A stretch of DNA of 64,000 bases from Opitutaceae bacterium (lineage in GTDB: Bacteria; Verrucomicrobiota; Verrucomicrobiia; Opitutales; Opitutaceae): positions 47,725-111,724 of the forward strand of contig JAKFEQ010000066.1 in assembly GCA_036675625.1 (NCBI GenBank), in the 5' to 3' direction. The position numbers and the translations under genes were made by a program. This document shows, piece by piece, positions 45,465-51,607 of this stretch; the first letter of the stretch is position 1; the number at the start of each line of letters is the position of its first letter. The notes beneath the pieces are model-generated. The model was not told the origin of the DNA and made no database searches. It saw only the letters and a program-made list of their open reading frames with translations.

Positions 45465-48400
45465 GTGCCTACTCCAGCCGGGCCCCGTTCGAATCGAATC
45501 ATTTCCCGAAAAAACCGCGCCCTGCTCGCCGCGGCGTGGGTGGCGCTCGGAGCGGCCAACGGGGTGGCGCCCCTGCGAGCGCAGGCGGATCTCACGACGG
45601 TTCGCGCCCGGGCGGAGCAGGGCGATCCCGAGGCGCTGAACGCACTCGCGAACGCCTACGCGAATGGCCAGGGCGTCGCGCAGAGTTTCACCGAGGCCCT
45701 GCGGCTCTATCAACAGGCGGCGGAACGCGGGCTGGCGGCGGCGCAATTCAACCTCGGCATGATGCACGAACTCGGTCGCGGCGTCGCGGCCGACCTGCCG
45801 ACGGCGTTCAAGCATTACCTGAAGGCGGCGGAGCAGGGCTTCGCGCCGGCACAGTTCAACGTCGGCAACATGTTTGCCGGGGGCATCGGCGTGAAACAGG
45901 ATTACTTCGAGGCCGCGTTGTGGTTTCGCCAGGCGGCGGATCGTGGGGTGCCCGAGGCGCAGTACAATCTCGCGCTTGCCTACGAGCTGGGGCGCGGCCT
46001 CGCGAAGGACGAGCCGTCGGCGCAACGCTGGTACCGCGCGGCCGCGGACCAGGGGTATTCACGTGCCCAATACAACCTGGCGCTGATGCTCGAGGAGGGC
46101 CGCGGCTCCGCGCCCGATCCGAAGGCGGCGGTGGAGTTTTACCGTCTGGCGGCGCGGCAGAATTTCGCGCCGGCGCAAAACAACCTCGGCATCCTGCTCG
46201 CGGAAGGCCGCGGGGCGCCCGCGAATCTCATCGAGGCTTACACCTGGCTGGCACTTGCGGTGGAGAACGGCGCGAAGCCGGTCGGCCGCGATCTCGTCGC
46301 GCAACAGCTTTCCTCGGCGCAGTTGGCTGAAGCCAACATCGCGGTCGCGAAGCTGCGCGCGCAGCTCGGCCTGCGCGATCCGGCGCCCGGTGCAAACGCG
46401 GTTGTGGCCACGGCGGGTTCGGGCGGTGCGCCGGCTCCGGCATCATCACCGGGCCGTCCGGTGTCGGCACCGGTGCCCGGATCGCCTCCGCCCGAAGTCG
46501 TCGCGCTCAACACCCGCATCGTCGCCGCGGAATCCGAGGTGGAGCGCCTCCGGGCGGAAAACGCACGGCTGGCAGAAGCAGCCCGAGCCGCGTCCGCGGC
46601 CGCTCCCTCGCGTGCGGACACGGGAGCAACGCCGCCGGCCGCGGGAACAGTCGATCCTGCGACGCTCACTGCCGCCACGCTGCAACAACTCGCCGCCAGC
46701 GACGCCCGGATCGCCAAGCTCATCGCGGACAACGCGCGGCTGAACGAAGACGTCAAACGCTCGACGATCGAGCTGACACAGCTCGGCCGGCAATTACGGC
46801 TCGCGCAGCAAAAGGGTCAGAGCAGCAAAGACGGAGGCGCAGGCGCAGCCGCCGAGTTGCGAACGGCGAATGAGAAACTCACGGCCGAGAAAGCCGCGCT
46901 CGAGAAACGCGTCGCGGAGCTCAACGCCAGACCCGTCGCCGATCCCGAGGCGGCGCAGACGATGCGCGCTCAGTTGGGTGAGGCGCTCGACGAATTGACG
47001 AAATCGCGCCAGGCCAGCGAGGAACTGAAGGCGCAGTTGAGCGCGGCGCAGCAGGCACTGGCCGAGCGGACGCGCCAGCTCGAGGGAGAGTTGCAGCAGG
47101 CGAAGGAAGCGCTCGTGACGGCGCAGGCGGCCGCGACACGTGCCGCCGACGAAGCGGCCACGAAAACGAAGGCCGCTCGAGCGTCAGCCACTGGCGAGCA
47201 GGGCGAGCTGGAAAAGCTCCGCGCGGCACTTGCCGCGGCGCAGCGCGAGCAGGCGGGAACTGCAGCCGTGGCGCAGCGGCTGCGGGATTTGACCGAGCAG
47301 CTCGAGGTCGTGTCGACGGAACGGGATCGCCTTCTCCAAGCCCAGGCCACAGTCGGACCGACGCGTGAAGCGCTGGCGGAGGCCACGCGCCAGCGTGATG
47401 CCCTGGCGACTGAGAAGAGCGCGGTCGAGCAGAGGCTGGCGCAGACGAGCACGAAACTGGAGGCGCAGCTTGCGCTTGGAGAGAAGCTCGAGGAGTCGAA
47501 CGCGAACCTTGGCGCGCGGTTCGATGCGGTGGTCGCGGAGCGCGATCGTCTTGCGGCCGCGATGCAAGACGCGAGCGGCACTCGGGAATCGGTCGAGAAA
47601 CTCGGGCGCGAACTGGAGACGGCGCGCCGGACCGTGGGCGAGCTGACGGCGAAGAACGACAGCCTGCAAAAGGACCTCGAAGTTTCGAAGCAAAGCGCGG
47701 CGGCGGCGCTGGCGGCGCAGGCGGCGGCGGCGAAAGCCGGACCGTCGGACGCGCTGCAACTCGAGATGCAGACGATGCAGAATCACGTCCGCACGCTCGA
47801 AACCCAACTCGACGAAGACCGGAAAAATTCTGCGCGCGAGATCGCGACGCTGGCCTCCCAACTCCAGAACGCACGGGAAACGAGTCGCGCGCTGGGAGAA
47901 GCGAATCGCTCGCTCGTCCAGGCCAGGGGCGCCGATGAGTCCGCCACCAAGGCGGAGATCGAGGAGGCGAAGACGCGGTTGAAAACGGCGCAGGCCGAGT
48001 TGGAGACCATGCGAGCGGAGCAGACCCGGCTCCTGGCCGAGCTCGAGGCGCGAACACAGAAGCTTGCGCCGCTCGAGCAGGCGGCCGAGGCGGCGAAGGC
48101 GGAAGCGGAAAAGGCGCGCCGCGACTACGCGGAGCTGCACGCGATGCATACGCAGGCGGAACGCGCGGCGGCGCAGCACGGCTCGGCCGTCGCCGAGTTG
48201 ACCGGCCTCAACGAAAAGCTGGCGAACGAGAAAACCGCGTTCGAGACCGAGCTGGCGAAAGCGCGCCAGATTGCCGGACAGGCGCAGAGTGAAGTCGCGG
48301 AATTGCGGAGCCGCATGACGGCGGGCGATCGCGCGTTGCAGGACCAACTCGGCAAGATCAACGGTCTGATGGCCGCGAACGAGACGTTGCAGGCCGGATT

Positions 48401-49148
48401 GAAAGAGCTTGGCGCGCAAGCGGAGGCCTTGCGCGCGGAGAATGCGCGCCTGGCGAGCGCGGGCGAAGTGGTGGGGACGGTCCGGGCGGAGCTTGACGAT
48501 GTGAAAGCCAGGCTGGCGGAGGCAAAAAAATCGGGCGAGCAGCACGGGGCGACGGTCGCGGAGCTCACCGCCACGAATGACCGGCTCGCGTCCGAGGTGA
48601 AGGAGTTGCAGGGGCGGCTCGAAACCTTGCGCGCGGACAACGCGCGGCTGGCGCAGAGCGAGGTGGCGCGGCAGGAAGCCGAGCAACGCGTCGCGAGCTT
48701 GAGCGCGACGGCGGCGCAGGTTGCGACGGCGCAACGCGAGCTGGCGGGGGCGCGTGAGGAGATCGCGCGTCTTAACGAAACCGTGCAGGCGCTCGATCGC
48801 GATCGATCGACCCGCGTGGCGCAGTTGCAGCAGGAGAACGCGGCGATCGCGGCGCGTTTGCGTCAGGCGCAGGGAACGCTGGACCAAATCGCTTCGGCGG
48901 CGCGCTTCATGAATCCGGGGGCGGGCGCCAGCGCGCCGGCCGCTCCCACGCCGAAGCCGGCATCGGCTGCGACGCCGATCGTGCCGGCACCGCGGATCCA
49001 CACCGTGGCCGAGGGCGATTCGCTGACGCGAATCAGCGTGCGCTATTACGGCACAGGAAATCGCTGGCAGGAAATCTACGAGGCGAACCGCGAAAGCCTG
49101 CGCGGCGAGAATGCGTTGCGGCCGGGGCAGCGGTTGAGGATTCCGTAA
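45465..49148 (+). CDS. Secreted Sel1-repeat + long coiled-coil + C-terminal LysM protein
   Basis: Six Sel1 repeats (AQFNLG.M...G.GV..D...A..WY..AA), Ala/Glu/Leu/Gln/Arg-rich heptad region, HTVAEGDSLTRIS...LRPGQRLRIP. Confidence 0.88.
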   Translation: MPTPAGPRSNRIISRKNRALLAAAWVALGAANGVAPLRAQADLTTVRARAEQGDPEALNALANAYANGQGVAQSFTEALRLYQQAAERGLAAAQFNLGMMHELGRGVAADLPTAFKHYLKAAEQGFAPAQFNVGNMFAGGIGVKQDYFEAALWFRQAADRGVPEAQYNLALAYELGRGLAKDEPSAQRWYRAAADQGYSRAQYNLALMLEEGRGSAPDPKAAVEFYRLAARQNFAPAQNNLGILLAEGRGAPANLIEAYTWLALAVENGAKPVGRDLVAQQLSSAQLAEANIAVAKLRAQLGLRDPAPGANAVVATAGSGGAPAPASSPGRPVSAPVPGSPPPEVVALNTRIVAAESEVERLRAENARLAEAARAASAAAPSRADTGATPPAAGTVDPATLTAATLQQLAASDARIAKLIADNARLNEDVKRSTIELTQLGRQLRLAQQKGQSSKDGGAGAAAELRTANEKLTAEKAALEKRVAELNARPVADPEAAQTMRAQLGEALDELTKSRQASEELKAQLSAAQQALAERTRQLEGELQQAKEALVTAQAAATRAADEAATKTKAARASATGEQGELEKLRAALAAAQREQAGTAAVAQRLRDLTEQLEVVSTERDRLLQAQATVGPTREALAEATRQRDALATEKSAVEQRLAQTSTKLEAQLALGEKLEESNANLGARFDAVVAERDRLAAAMQDASGTRESVEKLGRELETARRTVGELTAKNDSLQKDLEVSKQSAAAALAAQAAAAKAGPSDALQLEMQTMQNHVRTLETQLDEDRKNSAREIATLASQLQNARETSRALGEANRSLVQARGADESATKAEIEEAKTRLKTAQAELETMRAEQTRLLAELEARTQKLAPLEQAAEAAKAEAEKARRDYAELHAMHTQAERAAAQHGSAVAELTGLNEKLANEKTAFETELAKARQIAGQAQSEVAELRSRMTAGDRALQDQLGKINGLMAANETLQAGLKELGAQAEALRAENARLASAGEVVGTVRAELDDVKARLAEAKKSGEQHGATVAELTATNDRLASEVKELQGRLETLRADNARLAQSEVARQEAEQRVASLSATAAQVATAQRELAGAREEIARLNETVQALDRDRSTRVAQLQQENAAIAARLRQAQGTLDQIASAARFMNPGAGASAPAAPTPKPASAATPIVPAPRIHTVAEGDSLTRISVRYYGTGNRWQEIYEANRESLRGENALRPGQRLRIP

Positions 49149-49189: not shown

Positions 49190-49293
49190 CACGGGCGAGA
49201 CGCCCGTGCTACCTCAAACGACGGGCGGGCGCCCGTGCTACGGGGATGGGCGGCTTGCGCGTGATCGACGTAGCATGGGCGTCCCCGCCCATG
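49190..49293. repeat. Cluster of three REP-like palindromes ending in GCTAC/GTAGC
   Basis: CACGGGCGAGACGCCCGTGCTAC (49190), GACGGGCGGGCGCCCGTGCTAC (49220), inverted GTAGCATGGGCGTCCCCGCCCATG (49270). Confidence 0.8.
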
Positions 49294-49382
49294 GATCGGA
49301 ACAATCGCGGGAAAGGCGCAGCCCCACTCGCCGACGTGCACCGATCGGACGCCTGCGGGTGGAGTTTACCTGGACAGCGACT

Positions 49383-49640
49383 TTAGGCGGCGACGGCTTT
49401 GCGGGTGGGCGAAGGCGGATTTGTCTTTGCCGTTTCCGCGAGCTGCGCGAAGAAGGAATCCCGGCGTTCGCGCGCCACCCGAATGTCCTTTGTGCCGAGC
49501 GAGCGGCGGATCCGCTCCTTGGTGAACGGCGTGGGATGCACGGTGTAGTGCAGGAACCAGGTGCCGTGGTTGTTCCACAGGTGGTGATTCGGATTTTCCG
49601 CGCGGACGCGGATGCCGGACAGTGCGGTGAGGGCGTTCAT
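49383..49640 (-). CDS. Small basic hypothetical protein resembling integrase arm-type (DUF6538-like) DNA-binding domains
   Basis: NPNHHLWNNHGTWFLHYTV...RIRRSLGTKDIRVARERRD; directly downstream of a riboswitch-like leader. Confidence 0.7.
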   Translation of the reverse strand: MNALTALSGIRVRAENPNHHLWNNHGTWFLHYTVHPTPFTKERIRRSLGTKDIRVARERRDSFFAQLAETAKTNPPSPTRKAVAA

Positions 49641-49683
49641 GATGCGTGATTTTCTTTGTGGGAGTTATCGCGCCTCAGGCTTG

Positions 49684-49718
49684 AAAACAAAAAACCGACC
49701 TAGGCATCAGGTCGGTCT
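49684..49718 (-). terminator. Intrinsic terminator (expression platform) upstream of the 85-aa gene
   Basis: Minus strand AGACCGACCT-GATGCCT-AGGTCGGTTT-TTTGTTTT, 43 nt before the ATG. Confidence 0.85.
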
Positions 49719-49725
49719 CGTCTTC

Positions 49726-49849
49726 GGGAGCGTTCTTGGTTCGAGACTCAAGGTGAGCCTCGCACATCCGGGGTCTCCCCCGATCCACCGTGGCCGCTCC
49801 CGGCCCGGTTGGCGGAGTCGGCTTGTTAAGGCCGGCTCGTTCCTGATGC
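49726..49849 (-). ncRNA. SAM-I/IV-type riboswitch aptamer (candidate)
   Basis: Hand-folded P1 GCAUC/GAUGU, J1/2 AGGA, P2, P3 CC-AA-CC/GG-U-GG core, P4 with GAGA loop, P5, and PK-2 GGGAGC/GCUCCC. Confidence 0.8.
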
Positions 49850-50021
49850 GAACGAGAACCTGAAGATCGGTTCTTCTTCGTCCAGCCTTTTTTTCCGGAT
49901 TTTTGTCATAGCCGGAACGCTGGAGGAAACCGCTCAGATCCGTCCAAATCACCTGGGCGAACCCCTGGCCGCGACCGGAGCCGATACAGGCTGAGACCGC
50001 TGCGCCGGTGCGAAACGCGGG

Positions 50022-51044
50022 TTATCGCGCGTGCTCTTTCGCGTAATGTTCGCGAAGCAGATCGTGACCGAAATCGCCCTTGAAATCGCGCACGGTCGTG
50101 TGGACGTGGTTTCCCTTGCCCTGGAAATTATCGAACTCGATGAGGAACGTCGGGCCTTGGATGCGATAGTAGGTTTGGTGGCTGCGATCGAGTCCGCCCG
50201 CCCAGGCGAACGTGATCTGGTCCGGCCCGGCGGTGTGGATTTTCGCGAGGGCTTCGTTGGCGAGATCGGGTCGCCAGCGGTTCAGGTAAAGCTTCACCAA
50301 TCCCACGAGCATCTCGCGCTGCCGTGGGGTCATGTCCGCGGCCGAGAGGCCGGCGGGGGAGAGCGGCTCGACGCGTTTCTTGTTGGTGGTGAAAATCTCC
50401 TTCACGGGCTGGCTCGAGAAGATCGCGGTCTTGCGCTGCGATTCGTCAAGCGCGTTGACGAGGGCCAGTCCGAGATCCTCTTCTTCGCCGAGCACGCGTT
50501 CGCCCTTCCGCGGTCCGGCTCGCACTTCGGCGGGATTGCTGCCGATGAACGACGGCGCGAAGAACACATGCTTGCCGTCGACGACGGTGAAGTTGAACGA
50601 GAGATGATGGCCTTCGAAGCGCCAGCCCCAGGATTTGTCGGGCGTGGGCTCGCCGAAGATTGTGACGAAATAACCGGTGGGATCGCGGCGGCCGGTGGTG
50701 TCTTTCTCCAGTTCTTTGAGCACCAGCTCGAGCGCCATGACCGCTTGTGCGCGGGCCATGCCGGTGTGGCTGAGGCCGGTGCGAAGCAGCGCGAGACCGA
50801 GCGCGGCTTGTTGCGTCGACATGCTTCTGATCGGCAGGCCCTGGCGCGCGATCGGCACGAAGTTCCAGTTTTCGCGTTCGGCATCGGTCAGCGCGTAGGT
50901 GGCTTGTTTCTGCTGGTCGGCGTTCAGGGCGGCGAGAAAGGTCTTTGCGGCGGCAGCCATTTCGGCGGCGGCTTCGTGAGCGCGCACGAGTGGTGCGACG
51001 AGCATGAGCGTGAACGAGAGAAACAGGCGAGGGGTGGAGCGCAC
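50022..51044 (-). CDS. DUF3500-family secreted protein
   Basis: WNFVP..RQGL, YFVTIFGEP, WGWRFEGHHLS, YYRIQGP, HVHT..RD...DFG; GTG start inferred before the signal peptide. Confidence 0.8.
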   Translation of the reverse strand: MRSTPRLFLSFTLMLVAPLVRAHEAAAEMAAAAKTFLAALNADQQKQATYALTDAERENWNFVPIARQGLPIRSMSTQQAALGLALLRTGLSHTGMARAQAVMALELVLKELEKDTTGRRDPTGYFVTIFGEPTPDKSWGWRFEGHHLSFNFTVVDGKHVFFAPSFIGSNPAEVRAGPRKGERVLGEEEDLGLALVNALDESQRKTAIFSSQPVKEIFTTNKKRVEPLSPAGLSAADMTPRQREMLVGLVKLYLNRWRPDLANEALAKIHTAGPDQITFAWAGGLDRSHQTYYRIQGPTFLIEFDNFQGKGNHVHTTVRDFKGDFGHDLLREHYAKEHAR

Positions 51045-51607
51045 GTGAGTGTTTAAGCGAGAAACGGGACTTGGGCGCAAGGGCGCAGCGGTCGCGTGCG
51101 CCGTGCTGAACACAGCTACATGGCGCGCCAGGCGCTTTGTGAGCGGACTGGCGCCGTTCGTCACGACGCGCTTGCCGTCGGGCAACCTGAGCTGGTCAAT
51201 GAAACCTCGAGCGCTACAACTCGTCTCGGGGGCGAGTTCATCTCGTTCTGCTTCGTTCTTTAATTTCCGGTCGCCGCGTTTCCGCACGCCACCATTCGCA
51301 TAGCGCGGCGGCCGACCAGCGAGACCCCTCGGGCGCGGTGAAGGCCGCTCCCGCCCACTGGACCCGTTTCCGACGGACCAGTGGGTCCGGGGCATGCGAT
51401 AGCGAACACCGAAAATCGATTTTCCAGGGGCGGCTTTGGTCCGTGCCCTGTTCTCTGGATAACAAAAAAAATCGCGGCGTAATGTACAGGCAAAGCATTG
51501 CGCCGCGATCCTCCGGCAGGCGCGGAGCCGCTGGGTACGGGGGCGATCCTGTCCGGGGCGGACGTGAAACAGTTGCGCCGGCGGACGGCTCGCGTTTCGT
51601 GAAGCGG

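Follow-up and report, generated by a model that had tools for sequence, protein, structure and literature searches.

A SAM-I/IV-type leader precedes a stand-alone arm-type-like mini-protein, a candidate relay of low SAM, in Opitutaceae and other Verrucomicrobiota

SAM riboswitches are direct controllers of the enzymes and transporters of methionine, cysteine and SAM. At the protein level, methionine genes of Enterobacteria are repressed in a SAM-dependent manner by MetJ, a ribbon-helix-helix dimer which binds SAM itself. A further small module of relevance here is the arm-type domain of tyrosine integrases, for which lambda Int and Tn916 Int provide the structural archetypes in their N-terminal domains. 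We know of no work on methionine/SAM regulation in Verrucomicrobiota. The riboswitch type closest to the one described below, SAM-I/IV, is the 'SAM-I-IV-variant' of Weinberg et al. (2010; PMC2864571); P2 of SAM-I contains an internal loop (k-turn), whereas P2 of SAM-I/IV does not (PMC2864571). In the window, i.e., the whole stretch of 64,000 nucleotides that was analysed, from the Opitutaceae (bacteria of soil and water), a predicted leader of this type is placed upstream of an 85-aa ORF, the product of which we refer to as the mini-protein.

The ORF is located on the minus strand (49383..49640; ATG 49640..49638, TAA 49385..49383) and matches the small basic ORF whose sequence was quoted in the preliminary description. 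It encodes a stand-alone, basic protein (pI 11.4) of 9.7 kDa. A homologue search returned more than 1,190 close homologues, a profile search with the protein family retrieved 1,042 clusters (50% identity, E≤1e-3), and the gene was found at no fewer than 580 loci in species genomes, with the isolate Horticoccus sp. 23ND18S-11 among the records. The best 150 relatives among the 1,042 clusters are 68–154 aa in length with no catalytic remnant, and paralogues are small too, which fits the earlier notion of a stand-alone small protein. Comparison with 22 orthologues gave dN/dS values of 0.06–0.15 (dS 0.7–1.4), and 19 residues are invariant in an alignment of 28 diverse members (A1). The number of homologues, the profile clusters, the low dN/dS and the recurrent upstream aptamer place the ORF beyond chance; by these comparisons, it is a genuine protein-coding gene under strong purifying selection. 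Our full-text literature search found no publication on this family.

Between the stop codon and the convergent gene we found three REP-like units GACGCCCGTGCTAC (two direct, one inverted; 49199..49284, no strand assigned). The convergent gene, encoding a protein with Sel1, coiled-coil and LysM features (45465..49148, plus strand), closes the transcription unit of the ORF; 14 related loci show the same synteny. With its own terminator-bearing leader upstream, and the REP-like units and the convergent gene downstream, the ORF is monocistronic here, as had been read from the DNA before. A putative promoter region lies at 49857..49910 of the minus strand and comprises TATGACA (49910..49904), CTGGAC (49885..49880), a 17-nt spacer and CAGGTT (49862..49857). 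Its placement follows from an alignment of 50 upstream regions; a simple sigma-70 scan detected no promoter in this region. Among 47 loci with a riboswitch, 25 have TATGACA at a distance of 52–80 nt ahead of P1. Several mini-protein paralogues elsewhere adjoin tRNA genes.

The predicted SAM-I/IV-type aptamer (49726..49854, minus strand) is built of P1 to P3, with P2 short and devoid of a k-turn; one additional hairpin sits in J3/1 and another follows P1. In a local search it scored 32.9 bits against RF01725 (E 0.0026), below the gathering score of 41.1, and a search of the leader at the gathering threshold of Rfam gave no match. Orthologous leaders score 25–40 bits against the same model, and two relatives pass the cut-off (L026, 43.7; G416, 41.8). 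Like RF01725, the leader has the P1-P2-P3 core with GCAUCA...GCCAACC...GGUGG...GAUG, a k-turn-less P2 (GAG/CUC and CGGC/GCCG with a single 1x1 mismatch, according to the fold and alignment A2), a P3-loop/3'-tail pseudoknot and the predicted character of an OFF switch with a terminator. The pseudoknot is formed by CGGGAGCG in the P3 loop (49795..49802, minus strand) and CGCTCCCG in the 3' tail (49725..49732, minus strand), and it covaries: at least six different sequences keep the pairing in relatives, e.g., AGGAGT/ACTCCT, ACGGGAT/ATCCCGT, GGAGAGT/ACTCTCC, CCGTGGAGA/TCTCCACG and GTCCGGAGAGG/CCTCTCCGGAC. The leader differs from RF01725 not only in its score but also in the extra J3/1 hairpin, which covaries and takes the place where SAM-I has P4.

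The association of the aptamer with the mini-protein gene is prevalent. The only RF01725 match in the source genome precedes the 85-aa ORF, and of the 80 named species genomes of Opitutaceae, 79 have the aptamer core upstream of the gene. RF01725 was detected directly upstream of the gene in 18 of 20 same-family loci and in five of nine distant ones, plus further loci, while in 41 Opitutaceae genera all 19 RF01725 matches precede a mini-protein copy. SAM-I, SAM-II and SAH riboswitches (RF00162, RF00521, RF01057) gave nothing above cut-off in the 41 Opitutaceae genomes; as far as sequence models can detect, the mini-protein gene is the only riboswitch-controlled SAM-related gene in them. It is present in 20 of the 41, so that around half of the genera do without it. 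Akkermansia-like orthologues and many paralogues are not preceded by the riboswitch, and an Rfam scan before the Akkermansia-like copies and before the main metK revealed no known RNA. The activity of the mini-protein is thus not intrinsically tied to SAM. Taken with the covarying pseudoknot, the pairing conserved across the phylum supports the view that the gene is under predicted SAM control. The SAM-riboswitch-like leader noted in the preliminary description is hereby upheld as a predicted RF01725-type aptamer, and its expected recurrence before homologues applies to the named Opitutaceae and not to the Akkermansia-like copies.

The region between the aptamer and the ORF seems to combine two means of control. 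It includes an intrinsic terminator (49681..49719, minus strand) with a 12-pair stem (49719..49691) followed by a U-run, conserved in alignment A2. In its 5' half and loop the terminator contains CCUGAUGC, which is perfectly complementary to GCAUCAGG, the 5' strand of P1 (duplex of -14.6 kcal/mol), so that an antiterminator can form. Behind the terminator lies a box, CCUGAGGCGCGA (49668..49679, minus strand; alignment A2), for which two alternative pairing partners are available, the P1 5' strand and a start-codon box, with duplex energies of -12.6 and -9.7 kcal/mol; the AUG is enclosed in a local fold. The start box UCACGCAUCAUG (49638..49649, minus strand) includes the AUG, mimics the P1 5' strand CGCAUCAGG and is conserved in 63 of the 80 named genomes. 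Terminator-less relatives (L025, L042 and L029) keep one such box and its partner at the AUG. We infer from these pairings that, with SAM bound, the aptamer would hold P1 and the terminator would form, and that in a transcript which is nevertheless read through, the downstream box would base-pair around the start codon. At low SAM, P1 would release its 5' strand, which could take the terminator and post-terminator boxes, and the gene would be transcribed and translated. The leader thereby appears to join termination and start-codon sequestration, a further departure from RF01725, as is its cargo: a mini-protein rather than an enzyme or transporter of methionine, cysteine or SAM.

The mini-protein itself was said to recall the N-terminal arm domain of integrases with no catalytic domain present, and our analysis bears this out. 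An arm-type-like fold is predicted for residues 21–73 (49422..49580, minus strand), a region which contains the RIRRSLGTKD...ARERRD block common to integrase N-termini. In the AF2 model it forms strands 21–24, 27–34 and 42–50, arranged as an antiparallel sheet, which packs on a helix 53–73 (pLDDT 77.5 overall, 84–95 in the core). The window protein matches DUF6538 with 23 bits (E 6.4e-5), below the Pfam gathering cut-off of 27; weak DUF6538 matches are found in all 28 family members (best E 1.6e-5) and Arm-DNA-bind_3 matches in six. Comparison by hhalign of the family alignment A1 with alignment A4, built from the N-termini of six confirmed Opitutaceae tyrosine integrases carrying Phage_integrase and DUF6538, gave 91.9% probability (E 6.8e-7, 41 columns). 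PHROGs returned a weak integrase match (E 0.012), and NCBIfam no match for the mini-protein. The structural check proposed earlier, Foldseek on a predicted structure, yielded no significant solved arm domain: the best PDB hit of the AF2 model had an E of 0.89 with no arm domain listed, small domains being hard for Foldseek, and the best viral match in BFVD was an unnamed 51-aa protein (E 0.012). Sequence-profile searches of the PDB with A1 and A4 found no solved relative. Topology and profile homology are therefore the basis of the fold assignment; they support descent of the mini-protein core from the arm-type N-terminal domain of tyrosine integrases, now apparently a stand-alone chromosomal gene in Opitutaceae and other Verrucomicrobiota.

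With the arm-type domain of tyrosine integrases (DUF6538, PF20172; Arm-DNA-bind_3, PF13356) the mini-protein shares three strands and a helix in the AF2 model, and the K/Q-x-(I/F)RRSL(G/K)TKD...A.RR block, common to integrases of the same bacteria. In contrast to integrases, it possesses neither a core-binding nor a catalytic domain (Phage_integrase, R-K-H-R-H-Y, is absent from the 85 aa), is encoded by a syntenic chromosomal gene under a riboswitch, scores below the Pfam cut-offs and has no Foldseek match among solved structures. It also differs in a family-specific N-terminal motif, NPNHHLWNNHG in the window (residues 16–26; 49563..49595, minus strand), which by comparison of A1 with A4 is absent from integrase domains; the invariant NPNHHLWNNNG of the family replaces the first strand region. 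N16, H19, H20, L21, N24 and G26 are invariant in this motif, and H19, H20 and H31 are so in the 28 diverse members, which agrees with the histidine cluster pointed out before. Three invariant histidines and several invariant asparagines in or near so compact a motif might suggest a metal-binding or redox protein using H19, H20 and H31, with the β-sheet as a scaffold. This is very unlikely, as the protein has no cysteine and matched no known metal-binding family, its basic surface and integrase kinship suggest nucleic acid instead, and nothing evident connects SAM with a metal site.

A genomic connection with SAM synthesis is provided by paralogues. We found the order riboswitch, mini-protein paralogue, metK in five genomes of three families (L073, L083, L048, L132 and L133). 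In three of the five operons the stop and start codons of the two genes overlap, and in three the Shine-Dalgarno sequence and the metK start codon lie within the 3' end of the paralogue. This gene order, seen in the genomes and new here, connects the family directly with SAM synthesis at the genomic level, since translational coupling to metK exists for some paralogues. A tree of 80 family members was too poorly resolved to place the metK-coupled form as ancestral. The overlapping codons of three operons imply stoichiometric co-translation, and the mini-protein could accordingly be a partner of MetK (a regulatory subunit, activator, inhibitor or assembly factor), with stand-alone copies acting in trans on the main MetK; its extreme conservation is what a highly conserved enzyme partner would lead one to expect, and our motif searches gave no DNA target. 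However, fold, homology and the pI of 11.4 point to a DNA-binding domain, 47 of the 52 riboswitch-bearing copies are far from metK, the genomes with coupled operons also have a main metK apart from the operon, with no mini-protein beside it, and half of the genera have MetK and no mini-protein. On balance we regard a MetK partner as rather unlikely.

The C-terminus of the mini-protein is conserved in its own right. Behind a variable linker, the window protein ends in AVAA (49386..49397, minus strand), an ssrA-like non-polar ...AA end. Each of the 120 closest homologues terminates in [V/F]AA, vs 1.85% of long ORFs in the source genome, and 78 of the 80 named genomes have the AA end, for which all four codons of Ala are used. 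Such synonymous variation is seen even where no gene follows. By this codon evidence, the ...[V/F]AA tail, described here for the first time, is selected at the peptide level. Degrons of the ssrA type (...LAA) are recognised at the C-terminus by ClpXP. Like them, the extreme end of the mini-protein is non-polar, of the form x-[V/F/A]-A-A, and follows a variable linker, but it is genetically encoded and not added by tmRNA. The resemblance suggests that the protein is probably subject to proteolytic turnover.

The tail and the operons also bear on the idea that the ORF is functionless, either the remnant of a truncated integrase or a mere coupling upstream ORF for metK. Its likeness to integrases is restricted to their N-terminus, some paralogues are neighbors of tRNA genes, and three operons have the metK initiation signals within the ORF 3' end. 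Yet we consider this scarcely credible in view of the strong purifying selection (dN/dS about 0.1), the conserved core-genome synteny, the spread over at least 580 loci, best matches that are small and retain no catalytic remnant, and the AA end kept with synonymous codons where nothing follows. The possibility raised beforehand that homologues might occur only as integrase fragments without the leader fails likewise, the relatives being stand-alone, under selection and recurrently preceded by it. Pseudogene or scar and leader-peptide readings were rejected on selection and distribution.

As for possible targets, motif searches found no shared operator, neither before metK nor before other genes. 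In the promoter of the main metK-ahcY there is a conserved palindrome, which is equally frequent in genera without the mini-protein and is therefore not the specific site of that protein. The likeness of the palindrome half-site CGCATCA to the leader boxes shows no covariation and is explained by the P1 consensus of SAM riboswitches. TATGACA(C) was rejected as an auto-operator or regulon motif, as it travels with the riboswitch promoter and not with riboswitch-less paralogues; TATGACA is not enriched genome-wide in G000 and four other genomes, nor before Met genes, and its few intergenic copies precede unrelated genes. Searches with Pfam, NCBIfam and PDB profiles detected no homology to MetJ, MetR, MtaR/CmbR, SahR or SamR. 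That the promoter motif search revealed no regulon would suit a protein binding RNA or the translation machinery (its own leader, other mRNAs or the ribosome) and tuning translation at low methylation capacity. The mini-protein is small and very basic, and the invariant NPNHHLWNNNG, foreign to integrase DNA-binding domains, suggests an altered specificity. However, searches turned up no resemblance to a known RNA-binding fold, and the riboswitch is the sole conserved RNA element associated with the gene; we judge this role distinctly unlikely.

The explanation that we prefer, with a probability of roughly one half, is that the mini-protein serves as a short-lived nucleic-acid-binding relay of low SAM. 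Both nucleic-acid binding and the regulatory role are proposed here from fold and gene context: nucleic acid is the most likely ligand of the protein, which probably reads DNA with its β-sheet as a monomer and would relay the low-SAM state to other genes. The [V/F]AA tail probably shortens its life, so that the signal would cease once SAM returns. More tentatively, the domesticated arm domain may be the master output of SAM sensing in Opitutaceae, where the mRNA would sense SAM and the short-lived protein would raise the supply of SAM/Met or curb SAM consumption, acting via DNA or MetK. Such a two-tier relay would replace direct riboswitch control of met genes and represent a new class of bacterial transcription factors; we see it as possible, though less probable than the relay as such.

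Across roughly half of the genera of Opitutaceae, and here and there in other Verrucomicrobiota, the sole detectable SAM riboswitch thus precedes a 9.7-kDa protein, and several lineages have a paralogue of it in translational coupling with an additional SAM synthetase. If the mini-protein is a regulator, it would offer a clean natural case of a riboswitch feeding a protein relay and of a DNA-binding module from mobile elements recruited into core metabolism. It would also open up methionine/SAM regulation in Verrucomicrobiota, which include relatives of the gut bacterium Akkermansia that keep the mini-protein without the riboswitch. In its proposed role the mini-protein resembles MetJ, as a small β-sheet DNA reader linking the SAM level to met transcription. 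Unlike with MetJ, SAM would be sensed here by the mRNA and not by the protein, and the two are not related in sequence according to Pfam and NCBIfam. A c-di-GMP riboswitch with a small-protein output is similar in that a family of small proteins passes a metabolite signal to another process, and differs in that the ligand is c-di-GMP and the proteins, described as membrane-associated, are unrelated to the mini-protein in sequence and fold.

The 85-residue ORF quoted in the preliminary description is present on the minus strand of the window (ATG at 49640, TAA at 49385..49383) and encodes a very basic mini-protein (pI 11.4, 9.7 kDa). It is neighbored upstream by a same-strand gene for a DUF3500 protein (50022..51395, minus strand) and downstream by a convergent gene, ending at 49148, for a 1,227-aa Sel1/coiled-coil/LysM protein. 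Between the stop codon and the convergent gene lie REP-like units GACGCCCGTGCTAC (49199-49284; two direct and one inverted), of which one-mismatch copies also occur at 26638 and 31338. Since the stop is followed by these units and a convergent gene, the ORF is monocistronic in the window, as had been proposed. We found the coiled-coil/LysM gene to be syntenic at 14 mini-protein loci; thus, the orphan riboswitch-mini-protein unit is a stable chromosomal feature rather than a mobile-element scar, a reading against which the selection and distribution data also speak.

A word-indexed search retrieved over 1,190 homologues, each roughly 85 aa long and 76–87% identical, all annotated as hypothetical and originating from Opitutaceae and other Verrucomicrobiota. 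A profile search run exhaustively over 1.84 billion representatives gave 1,042 clusters at E ≤ 1e-3. Pairwise comparison with 22 orthologues yielded dN/dS values of 0.06–0.15 at dS of 0.7–1.4, and 19 residues are invariant across 28 diverse members (R11, N16, H19, H20, L21, N24, G26, W28, H31, T33, R43, R45, S47, L48, T50, A56, R57, R60, and D61). Both its reality as a protein and the strong constraint on it are firmly shown, and it is virtually certain to be translated and functional. Past its helix, a variable Ala/Pro-rich linker leads to a conserved C-terminal end: [V/F]AA terminates 120 of the 120 closest homologues, versus 1.85% of long ORFs in the window's genome, and Akkermansia-like copies end in ..GIAA. 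The final AA was found in 78 of 80 named genomes, with all four Ala codons used in the last two positions; therefore, selection acts on the peptide, and selection on the tail is likewise firmly shown. The tail resembles the ...LAA of the ssrA tag, a signal for ClpXP. By this analogy, a degron would suit a regulator that must vanish on SAM recovery.

At gathering thresholds, Rfam has no match anywhere in the 64-kb window. A permissive scan limited to 49300-50100 placed a SAM-I/IV (RF01725) aptamer directly 5' of the ORF, at 49854..49726 on the minus strand (32.9 bits versus a cut-off of 41.1, E 0.0026), with no second such match in the whole 7.67-Mb genome; the leaders of two relatives pass the cut-off (43.7 and 41.8 bits). 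In an alignment of 30 orthologous leaders, the aptamer core GCAUCA...GCCAACC...GGUGG...GAUG is invariant, P2 is short and lacks a k-turn, J3/1 accommodates an additional covarying hairpin, another covarying hairpin lies 3' of P1, and the P3 loop is complementary to the 3' tail. This last pairing, the pseudoknot that is the hallmark of SAM-IV and SAM-I/IV architecture, is kept by at least six different sequence pairs, among them CGGGAGCG/CGCUCCCG, AGGAGU/ACUCCU, ACGGGAU/AUCCCGU, GGAGAGU/ACUCUCC, and CCGUGGAGA/UCUCCACGG. On these comparative grounds, the SAM riboswitch-like leader noticed earlier is accepted as an apparently genuine, member-like SAM-I/IV variant below the curated threshold. The main text of the paper defining SAM-I/IV (PMC2864571) does not discuss such cargo, and our full-text search found no paper joining 'SAM riboswitch' with Opitutaceae.

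The aptamer is followed by an intrinsic terminator (49719..49691, minus strand) made up of a stem of 12 pairs and a U-run. Its 5' half and loop contain a box, CCUGAUGC, that is the exact complement of the P1 5' strand GCAUCAGG (computed duplex -14.6 kcal/mol). A second complement of the P1 5' strand, CCUGAGGCGCGA, is positioned 3' of the U-run (49679..49668, minus strand; -12.6 kcal/mol) and can itself pair (-9.7 kcal/mol) with a box resembling the P1 5' strand, UCACGCAUCAUG, that spans the start codon (49649..49638, minus strand); the AUG is enclosed in a computed local fold. The terminator-less relatives L025 and L042 (L-numbers denote loci) retain one box with its partner at the AUG, and in L029 and L047 the boxes are altered in concert. 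The simplest model we infer is a two-state platform. With SAM present, P1 would be locked, so that the terminator forms and the AUG is sequestered in any read-through transcript; with SAM absent, the P1 5' strand would capture the boxes, giving antitermination and a free AUG. Repression of mini-protein expression by SAM appears highly probable.

The promoters of the riboswitch unit in Opitutaceae read CTGGAC-N17-CA(C/G)(G/C)TT (49857-49885, minus strand, in the window) rather than TTGACA/TATAAT, and may be lineage-specific or served by an alternative sigma factor; those of distant relatives carry TTGACC...TATAAT-like boxes. Just upstream of the -35-like element lies a TATGACA(C/A) box (49904-49910, minus strand), which is found 52–80 nt 5' of P1 at 25 of 47 riboswitch-bearing loci, phylum-level relatives included, and which accompanies the riboswitch promoter but is absent from riboswitch-less paralogues. 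At L005 and L008, from same-genus genomes, the box is part of a palindrome, TGACA-N5-TGTCA, and a TPP riboswitch match lies less than 1 kb from the mini-protein locus (L005 981-1094, 55.1 bits; L008 2335-2448, 50.8 bits).

Across the phylum, 70 of 401 genomes encode the mini-protein in 1–6 copies each, and an RF01725-like match lies directly upstream at 18 of 20 loci from the same family, at 5 of 9 distant ones, and at several others. Whether homologues carry the SAM leader, as the preliminary description proposed to check, is answered by the aptamer core upstream in 79 of the 80 top-ranking genomes of named species, which include Opitutus, Horticoccus, Cephaloticoccus, and numerous MAGs, and by our sample of 41 Opitutaceae genomes (40 genera). 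In this sample, a profile search detected 23 copies in 20 genomes, and all 19 RF01725 matches, from 17 genomes, lie immediately upstream of a family member; Infernal with stricter filters gave zero SAM-I (RF00162) matches and no SAM-II (RF00521) or SAH (RF01057) match above cut-off. No SAM-riboswitch cargo other than the mini-protein is thus detectable there, and the conservation of its pairing with an OFF switch of SAM-I/IV type is firmly shown.

An Akkermansia-like genus, g44, possesses a 74-aa orthologue, identical in six species, with no SAM riboswitch upstream. At these loci (L032-L037, L130, L131, L135, and L137) it sits behind an rpmB-like gene and is preceded by a conserved leader spanning roughly 190 nt; two copies stand in tandem at L135, and recA is next in some. 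Some genomes of another family carry 5–6 riboswitch-less paralogues each, a few of them adjoining tRNA genes. Such expanded sets, with up to 6 paralogues per genome, are seen at L039-L046, L120-L127, and L134 (genomes G306, G336, G282, G289, and G169), L039 and L045 being the two next to tRNA genes; this may point to mobile elements as a repeated source of the paralogues or as partners in their exchange. The order of these events is not recoverable from our poorly resolved tree of 80 members. The copies behind the riboswitch at L138 (G149:C2), L085 (G430:C3), and L072 (G416:C12), in which other sequence stands in place of the helix region or an in-frame TGA has been reported, may be decaying or reflect assembly errors.

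As to origin, the mini-protein matches Pfam DUF6538, an arm-type domain of tyrosine integrases, below threshold (23 bits versus 27, residues 38-67), so that it is not a member by the family's own cut-off; the weak match recurs in 28 of 28 aligned members, six of which also touch Arm-DNA-bind_3. PHROGs gives a weak integrase match and NCBIfam none. We collected the N-termini of six tyrosine integrases from Opitutaceae genomes, the five scanned being confirmed by Pfam as Phage_integrase with N-terminal DUF6538. Aligned with these by hhalign, the mini-protein profile matches with a probability of 91.9% (E 6.8e-7) across strands 2-3 plus the helix, the common block being ...GTWFLHYTV...KERIRRSLGTKD..ARERRD versus ...GGYYALVKR.GKQFRRSLKTKDRKLAERRL. 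Three strands and a helix constitute the arm-type topology, and an AlphaFold2 model built on the 28-sequence alignment (pLDDT 77.5 overall, 84–95 in the core) has strands at residues 21-24, 27-34, and 42-50, followed by a helix spanning 53-73. The suggested arm-type likeness without a catalytic domain is supported, the best 150 of the 1,042 clusters all measuring 68–154 aa, and the mini-protein is not an integrase. Foldseek found nothing significant among solved structures (best E 0.89), and in BFVD matched solely a nameless 51-aa phage protein (E 0.012, TM 0.76 on target). At the profile level, homology to the arm-type domain is well supported and counts as firmly shown, and descent from it is probable. 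Near the N-terminus, the invariant histidines fall in a family-specific motif, NPNHHLWNN(N/H)G, which is absent from the integrases. No paper mentioning DUF6538 was found in full-text search.

The order riboswitch, mini-protein paralogue, metK occurs in five genomes of three taxonomic families, and recurrent coupling to metK is firmly shown. The mini-ORF stop overlaps the metK ATG at L073 (G408:C14), L083 (G291:C119), and L048 (G264:C1), whereas gaps of 23 and 503 nt separate them at L132 (G338:C475) and L133 (G281:C4). The overlapping junctions read ..GGAGGGCUGCCUGAUG..., with the Shine-Dalgarno within the final mini-ORF codons, by its sequence a classic translational-coupling arrangement. 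The L073 MetK has all three S-AdoMet synthetase domains (Pfam) and shares about 54% identity with the main MetK of the window's genome, where metK lies elsewhere (C32:441953), followed by ahcY; G408 and G291 additionally have the orphan unit and a separate main metK. That the mini-protein is a partner of MetK, a reading to which this gene order is relevant, seems unlikely beside its arm-domain kinship.

In search of a target, we identified a main metK-ahcY promoter block, C(G/A)(C/T)ATCA-N9-11-GAT(G/A)(C/T)GTTGATATT-N4-5-CTTGC (also CGCATCA-N9-11-GATGCGTTGATATT-N4-5-CTTGC), 51–90 nt 5' of the start codon in 25 of the 30 genera of Opitutaceae compared, whose arms covary as a palindrome and which matches no known RNA family in Rfam. 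In the window's genome it lies outside the window (C32 ~441876-441916; L090 ~1424-1464). The block is equally present in genera without the mini-protein and is therefore not its specific operator; it may be the operator or promoter of another SAM/Met regulator. The TATGACA box was likewise rejected as a regulon motif, being not enriched genome-wide, with few other intergenic copies, all before unrelated genes and none before Met genes. Accordingly, no regulon was inferred from either element.

We give a probability of roughly 0.5 to the mini-protein being a nucleic-acid-binding regulator. The most economical mechanism would be a short-lived nucleic-acid-binding factor that, made only at low SAM, relays that state; SAM/methionine supply could be switched on, SAM consumption restrained, or MetK acted upon. 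The nearest conceptual precedent is provided by the c-di-GMP-riboswitch-regulated small proteins of C. difficile, the subject of a 2026 paper.
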